NCBI RefSeq assembly: GCF_054482525.1
Contig: NZ_CM137006.1
Direction: 5' to 3' (one strand)
DNA length: 64,000 nt
The notes beneath the pieces were generated by a model that worked only from the letters and a program-made list of their open reading frames with translations, was not told the origin of the DNA and searched no databases. A program made the position numbers and the translations under genes. Below are positions 17,733-18,030 of this stretch, in pieces (position 1 is the first letter of the stretch; the number at the start of each line of letters is the position of its first letter).

Positions 17733-17808
17733 TGGAGCGGGAAACGAGACTCGAACTCGCGACCCCGACCTTGGCAAGGTCGTGCTCTACCAACTGAGCT
17801 ATTCCCGC
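17733..17808 (-). tRNA. glyY: tRNA-Gly (anticodon GCC), copy 1 of 3
   Basis: 76-nt reverse complement of GCGGGAATAGCTCAGTTGGTAGAGCACGACCTTGCCAAGGTCGGGGTCGCGAGTTCGAGTCTCGTTTCCCGCTCCA; the K-12 copy name is assumed from gene order. Confidence 0.95.
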
Positions 17809-17843
17809 TTGGGTGGTCTGTGCTTTACAGCACTTTCAAATTT

Positions 17844-17919
17844 TGGAGCGGGAAACGAGACTCGAACTCGCGACCCCGACCTTGGCAAGGTCGTGCTCTA
17901 CCAACTGAGCTATTCCCGC
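17844..17919 (-). tRNA. glyX: tRNA-Gly (anticodon GCC), copy 2 of 3
   Basis: Identical 76-nt tRNA sequence, 35-nt spacer from copy 1. Confidence 0.95.
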
Positions 17920-17954
17920 TTGGGTGGTCTGTGCTTTATAGCACTTTCAAATTT

Positions 17955-18030
17955 TGGAGCGGGAAACGAGACTCGAACTCGCGACCCCGACCTTGGCAAG
18001 GTCGTGCTCTACCAACTGAGCTATTCCCGC
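17955..18030 (-). tRNA. glyV: tRNA-Gly (anticodon GCC), copy 3 of 3
   Basis: Identical 76-nt tRNA sequence, 35-nt spacer from copy 2. Confidence 0.95.

Follow-up and report, generated by a model that had tools for sequence, protein, structure and literature searches.

The DNA analysed here is a stretch of 64,000 nt (the window), in which the segment 17733-18030 carries the same unit three times with a period of 111 nt. The question is what these repeats are: tRNA genes of a known operon, a repeat array of another nature that merely resembles tRNA, a gene encoding a repeat protein on the opposite strand, or a tRNA gene accompanied by duplicated remnants of integrative elements. We conclude, with a probability of about 98%, that the segment is the glyV-glyX-glyY operon of Escherichia coli, which is an already known and ordinary feature.

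ARAGORN called three tRNA-Gly genes with the anticodon gcc at position 34, all on the minus strand (Table 1). Each of them was matched by the Rfam model RF00005 over its entire length (model positions 1-71 of 71; 69.1 bits and E = 2.6e-14 per copy in all 3 of 3 copies, the gathering score being 29 bits). Direct comparison of the three copies demonstrated that they are 76 nt each, mutually identical, and have the CCA end encoded. Both spacers are 35 nt long and identical at 34 of 35 positions, the sole difference being G versus A at position 16 in the tRNA sense. TRF described the locus as one array (17731-18030, period 111, 2.7 copies, 99% matches, no indels, score 593), and this regularity is far beyond chance. 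The original prediction of three identical tandem tRNA-Gly(GCC) genes with regular 35-nt spacers is thus borne out, whereas its claim of a perfectly regular 111-nt period is correct for length, as no indels are seen, and incorrect for sequence, as the spacers differ at one base.

The MFE folding of one tRNA-Gly yielded merged anticodon and variable regions and no clean cloverleaf, and in the MFE folding of the 526-nt precursor the neighbouring tRNA copies mispaired. This is a known limit of such folding, and not an argument against the tRNA call; as MFE folding is unsuited to testing for a cloverleaf, the covariance model was used for that purpose. The identity set of the bacterial GlyRS comprises the U73 discriminator, the pairs G1:C72, C2:G71 and G3:C70, and C35 and C36, and all these elements are present in the tRNA-Gly sequence (GCGGGAAU...UUCCCGC-U-CCA). 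The three genes thus encode the GCC isoacceptor, and, given the 100% identity to the K-12 tRNA-Gly3 genes, this tRNA would be charged with glycine and used in translation. Rfam also gave 40.3 bits, below the cut-off of 69, to a match with YrlA (Y RNA-like) at 17867-18005 on the minus strand, which was rejected: YrlA has a tRNA-like domain, and the sub-threshold match spans parts of two tRNA copies and the intervening spacer, hence we judged it to be a tRNA cross-match.

All three tRNA-Gly genes are base-for-base identical to glyV, glyX and glyY of K-12 (3 of 3 comparisons). Over the 1 kb surrounding the array, the window is 100% identical to E. coli SCU-102; of 5,426 complete E. coli genomes, 5,425 have this region, with at least 95% identity in nearly all of them; in a 6-kb comparison, the window and SCU-102 differ by one mismatch. 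In the annotation of both SCU-102 and K-12 MG1655 the gene order is rsgA, orn, three tRNA-Gly genes, yjeV, and then queG facing them, orn being upstream of the array on the same strand, and yjeV/datA and queG being downstream. What was observed here on the sequence itself comprises the gene calls, the match to K-12, the gene order and the positions of the motifs, and none of this speaks against the identification. Since the sequence is identical to the K-12 genes, the context is the same, and the 1-kb region matches E. coli genomes throughout the species, the locus is glyV-glyX-glyY itself, so that the cluster originally predicted to be of the glyVXY type is in fact the actual E. coli locus.

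The operon of K-12 (b4163-b4165, tRNA-Gly3, anticodon GCC) has the same tRNA sequences and shares with the window the region from the -35 hexamer through the leader to the first tRNA, the first ~100 nt of the trailer, and the neighbours orn, yjeV, datA and queG. A few differences are found in the spacers. The K-12 spacers are 36 and 35 nt, yielding periods of 112 and 111, whereas in the window both are 35 nt, so that a strict 111-nt regularity is a property of the present strain. The loop of the V-X spacer is GCAA in K-12 and AUAA in the window; the closing pair in the X-Y spacer is U-G in K-12 and U-A in the window. The window region is also oriented oppositely to that of K-12.

Table 1. Features of the locus. 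Positions are those of the window, except in the last row, where they refer to the annotated loci named.
Feature	Position	Strand	Basis
A/T-rich tract resembling an UP element	18122-18146	-	sequence; just upstream of -35
Putative sigma-70 promoter: -35 TTGCAG (18115-18110), 16-nt spacer, -10 TATAAT (18093-18088)	18088-18115	-	by eye; K-12 identity
tRNA-Gly(GCC) copy 1, promoter-proximal, glyV equivalent	17955-18030	-	ARAGORN; RF00005; identity to K-12 glyV
Spacer 1, 35 nt, AAAUUUGAAA-GUGCU-AUAA-AGCAC-AGACCACCCAA	17920-17954	-	sequence; fold
Spacer 1 hairpin GUGCU-AUAA-AGCAC	17931-17944	-	-6.2 kcal/mol, z = -3.9, 0 of 200 shuffles as stable
tRNA-Gly(GCC) copy 2, glyX equivalent	17844-17919	-	ARAGORN; RF00005; K-12 identity
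Spacer 2, 35 nt, as spacer 1 save G for A at loop position 16	17809-17843	-	sequence; fold; covariation
Spacer 2 hairpin GUGCU-GUAA-AGCAC	17820-17833	-	-7.2 kcal/mol, z = -2.8
tRNA-Gly(GCC) copy 3, glyY equivalent	17733-17808	-	ARAGORN; RF00005; K-12 identity
Candidate terminator/attenuator: imperfect hairpin (17684-17707), then U-rich run UUUUUGUUGU	17671-17714	-	fold; K-12 identity
datA locus, adjoining and functionally coupled to the tRNA array, outside it	17465-17714	-	DnaA-box search; literature
yjeV, 17-codon ORF overlapping the 3' end of opposite-strand queG	17446-17499	-	position transferred from RefSeq annotation
Repeat ORF, 142 aa, thrice-repeated peptides	17613-18041	+	ORF list
Repeat ORF, 143 aa, thrice-repeated peptides	17707-18138	+	ORF list
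157-nt first spacer	L003 1132-1288; L005 6190-6346; L006 5880-6036		annotated E. coli loci

The regular tandem arrangement reported by TRF is also what would be expected of a non-tRNA array (CRISPR-like, minisatellite or mobile-element) with a mere resemblance to tRNA, as constant spacing can mimic CRISPR arrays. However, the covariance model finds a full-length tRNA in every unit, the putative CRISPR "spacers" are near-identical, whereas CRISPR spacers are unique, and the array coincides with the characterised genes of K-12; neither cas nor transposase genes are adjacent to the array in the annotated context. A CRISPR or other spacer-repeat array was therefore rejected, the "repeats" being complete tRNA genes, and we give this whole class of readings practically no credence. 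Hardly any more can be given to the possibility that one of the two plus-strand ORFs is a real gene of a repeat protein. They do remain open for 142-143 codons, and one of them has weak sub-threshold Pfam matches (the best, DUF3830, at 21.3 bits versus a cut-off of 26), but neither reaches a Pfam gathering score, the other ORF having no match at all, and the repeated peptides are the antisense translation of three identical tRNA genes. Moreover, no CDS is present at these positions in the RefSeq/PGAP annotation of any genome inspected, and the frames would be shifted or truncated in strains with two or four copies and by the 36-nt spacer of K-12. Both ORFs are by-products of the tandem repeat, in agreement with their original description as artefactual.

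If the extra copies were duplicated att-site remnants of integrative elements that target tRNA-Gly, one would have to explain why all three are complete 76-nt genes and not 3' fragments, and why no integrase or foreign DNA is found between orn and queG. The idea draws on the fact that tRNA genes are common integration sites and on the tRNA-Phe gene of the window (46889-46964), which adjoins an integrase-bearing island. Against it, the same tandem layout is observed across Gamma- and Betaproteobacteria (among the loci listed), and the alignments that seem to stop at the 3' end of the third copy in ~30% of genomes are, judging by two such genomes, split by a 121-nt repeat in the first spacer and not by an island. 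We consider this origin of the copies very improbable, and retain the reading of the segment as the glyV-glyX-glyY operon.

The tRNA-Phe gene is the single other tRNA called by ARAGORN within the window. Just after it, at the pheU position, the window departs from SCU-102, and the segment 46965-64000 is an island with a tyrosine integrase and S/F1C fimbrial genes (sfaF/focD, focH). Of the 5,426 E. coli genomes, only 46 contain at least 80% of this island, and urinary-tract isolates are among the best matches.

The number of copies was considered in an even sample of 60 records taken across the whole E. coli ranking. Most had three tRNA-Gly copies, one row had two and one row had four; annotated complete genomes confirm both the two-copy (PCN033, locus L004) and the four-copy (GPEC673, locus L003) variants. 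Thus, the locus contains from two to four copies among complete E. coli genomes, three being by far the commonest, and the existence of such strains is consistent with unequal recombination. According to a published statement, all E. coli have three or four copies; this leaves out the two-copy strains, unless the latter result from assembly collapse.

Approximately 18 of the 60 sampled rows matched the query in part only (positions 332-1001). In the two partial-match genomes that were inspected there are three tRNAs, and the first spacer is 157 nt long, comprising a 36-nt spacer and a 121-nt insertion. As the first spacer is so extended and queG is directly downstream in both genomes, the apparent break at the third copy is an alignment split, and an island inserted after the third tRNA in ~30% of genomes was rejected. 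The 121-nt sequence occurs, at no less than 95% identity, somewhere in 1,606 records, that is, in ~30% of genomes, with a median of 7 places per genome. This dispersed repeat resides in the first tRNA spacer of about 30% of complete E. coli genomes; the array of the window is free of it. Judging from the ERIC primer sequences, we take the core of this repeat to resemble ERIC/IRU.

A consensus promoter scan of 17300-18500 found no promoter. It missed the promoter of the operon because the -35 hexamer matches the consensus at only three of six bases. The putative -10 hexamer ends 57 nt ahead of the first tRNA base and is directly followed by the G+C-rich discriminator GCGCCUCC, which includes GCGCC. 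A perfect -10 hexamer, a G+C-rich discriminator and an A/T-rich upstream tract are typical of stable-RNA promoters under growth-rate and stringent control; the hexamers assigned here are predicted ones, and the A/T-rich tract may serve as an UP element, as in other promoters of this type. In K-12, PglyV-X-Y drives the operon, as demonstrated by its deletion, which abolishes transcription of the downstream region (PMC10950094). By similarity to K-12, the three tRNAs of the window would be co-transcribed from one promoter.

At the other end of the array, a scan of 17300-18500 for terminators gave no site immediately past the third tRNA, and the only terminator-like site was at 17521-17543, ~190 nt beyond the array. 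The candidate terminator hairpin listed in Table 1 (-9.4 kcal/mol, z = -1.3) is not significantly stabler than shuffles; this stretch is identical to K-12, and the first difference in the trailer is ~100 nt past the last tRNA. The hairpin overlaps the DnaA box ATATCCACA at 17706-17714. In K-12, TglyV-X-Y was described as an attenuator that overlaps DnaA box 1 of datA and allows for considerable read-through (PMC10950094), and a weak hairpin over a DnaA box would fit this leaky terminator.

Four matches to the DnaA box with at most one mismatch (17706-17714, 17639-17647, 17477-17485 and 17465-17473) lie within the 270 nt that separate the array from queG, the one at 17639-17647 being the perfect box TTATCCACA; the window mean is 0.42 such matches per kb. 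The segment is datA, which has been placed downstream of glyV-X-Y (PMC10380432, PMC10950094). The datA locus promotes hydrolysis of DnaA-bound ATP after replication initiation, and read-through transcription from PglyV-X-Y enters datA and modulates IHF binding there (PMC10950094). The yjeV frame falls inside the read-through transcript of the tRNA operon and lies partly outside the datA span.

In the maturation of tRNA, RNase P cuts the 5' ends, and exonucleases trim the 3' ends to the encoded CCA. The K-12 glyV-X-Y precursor is efficiently cleaved in vitro by RNase E 1 nt downstream of glyY, and for this the glyX-glyY spacer has to be accessible in unpaired form and the glyX tRNA has to be present upstream (PMC4191395, PMC9841416). 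Since the trailer in the window is the same as in K-12 for ~100 nt past the last tRNA, and the glyX-glyY spacer differs by only one base, a K-12-like RNase E pathway is expected in this strain. The E. coli operons argX-hisR-leuT-proM, metT-leuW-glnUW-metU-glnVX and glyW-cysT-leuZ likewise have one promoter, several tRNAs and short A/U-rich spacers, which RNase E cuts by direct entry in dependence on adjacent structured units, as in the case of glyV-X-Y (PMC4191395, PMC9841416). In contrast to these three operons, which mix different tRNAs, glyV-X-Y repeats one tRNA thrice with near-identical spacers.

Each spacer consists of an A/U-rich 5' part, a hairpin and a C/A-rich 3' part; the 5-bp hairpin GUGCU-NUAA-AGCAC, which surpasses nearly all shuffles in stability, is preceded by AAAUUUGAAA and followed by AGACCACCCAA, and the single base that separates the two spacers is situated in the loop. 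In the RNase E papers cited here, the spacer is mentioned only as an unpaired or single-stranded region (PMC4191395, PMC9841416). A scan for head-to-tail tRNA-Gly(GCC) junctions in the genomes of 100,044 species yielded at least 120 loci. Among the loci listed, at least 183 different spacer sequences (16-56 nt) were recorded in Gamma- and Betaproteobacteria, and tandem arrays with the same tRNA ends head to tail contain from 2 to 7 copies in Aeromonas, Vogesella, Pantoea, Enterobacter, Citrobacter and others, the maximum, at least 7 copies, being observed in Aeromonas. The arrays of other Proteobacteria have spacers of different sequence and length (16-56 nt among the loci listed), and the AAAUUUGA...hairpin...CCCAA plan is common only to some genera of Enterobacteriaceae among the loci listed.

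For the hairpin itself, we aligned all 22 Enterobacteriaceae spacers with the AAATTT...CCCAA frame among the loci listed, paralogous spacers included. The five stem pairs have standard pairing in 82% of cells, and changes on both sides are seen at every pair (e.g. UGGCU/AGCCA, UGCC/GGCA, GUAUC/GAUAC). The covariation score is 0.344 versus 0.157 in shuffles, none of 500 shuffles reaches it, and with the partner columns slid the score is at most 0.083. Among the loci listed, compensatory pairing is kept in the spacers of Escherichia, Citrobacter, Enterobacter, Siccibacter and Mangrovibacter; no hairpin is present in the shorter spacers of Pluralibacter, Superficieibacter and Erwinia, and the Kluyvera spacer has a stem of at most 3 bp. 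RNAalifold found no consensus pairs in the complete set of 22 Enterobacteriaceae spacers, and three pairs in the 16 hairpin-bearing ones. These 16 were picked for the presence of the hairpin; counting pairs explicitly in all 22 spacers, without such selection, is the fairer test. Thus, the hairpin is probably under some selection in a part of the Enterobacteriaceae, as far as a small sample of spacer sequences can tell. That the hairpin has a function in the precursor, and is not simply neutral sequence, seems to us possible, though doubtful. It might then be recognised by the RNA-binding groove of RNase E, block 3' exonucleases, or insulate the identical neighbour tRNAs from mispairing with one another.

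The observations suggest the following course of events. A sigma-70 promoter of the stable-RNA type, located ~57 nt before the first gene, would give rise to one minus-strand precursor of all three genes, and RNase E would cut this precursor in the A/U-rich segments of the spacers and the trailer. RNase P would then make the 5' ends, and 3' exonucleases would trim back to the genome-encoded CCA. The mature tRNA-Gly with the anticodon GCC would read GGC and, by wobble, GGU. Three tandem copies, together with glyW elsewhere in the genome, may provide the gene dosage required for the glycine codons used most, identity of the copies may be maintained by recombination between them, in a form of concerted evolution, and the discriminator may place the operon under stringent control. 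Finally, leaky termination after the third gene would let read-through transcription enter the neighbouring datA. Promoter use, RNase E cleavage and the effect of read-through on IHF binding at datA were demonstrated by others on the K-12 sequence, and would hold for the window by analogy.

The locus is a correctly recognised housekeeping tRNA operon and matters little as a finding. The practical point is that the two antisense repeat ORFs should be masked, and that the array is no novel repeat. The small new observations, namely the covarying spacer hairpin, the polymorphism of two to four copies and the insertion of a dispersed repeat in ~30% of strains, would be of use only to specialists in tRNA precursor processing or in tRNA gene dosage. 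For the cell, transcription from the tRNA promoter into datA helps to time the inactivation of DnaA after replication initiation, as reported for K-12 (PMC10950094), and the same may apply to the strain considered here.
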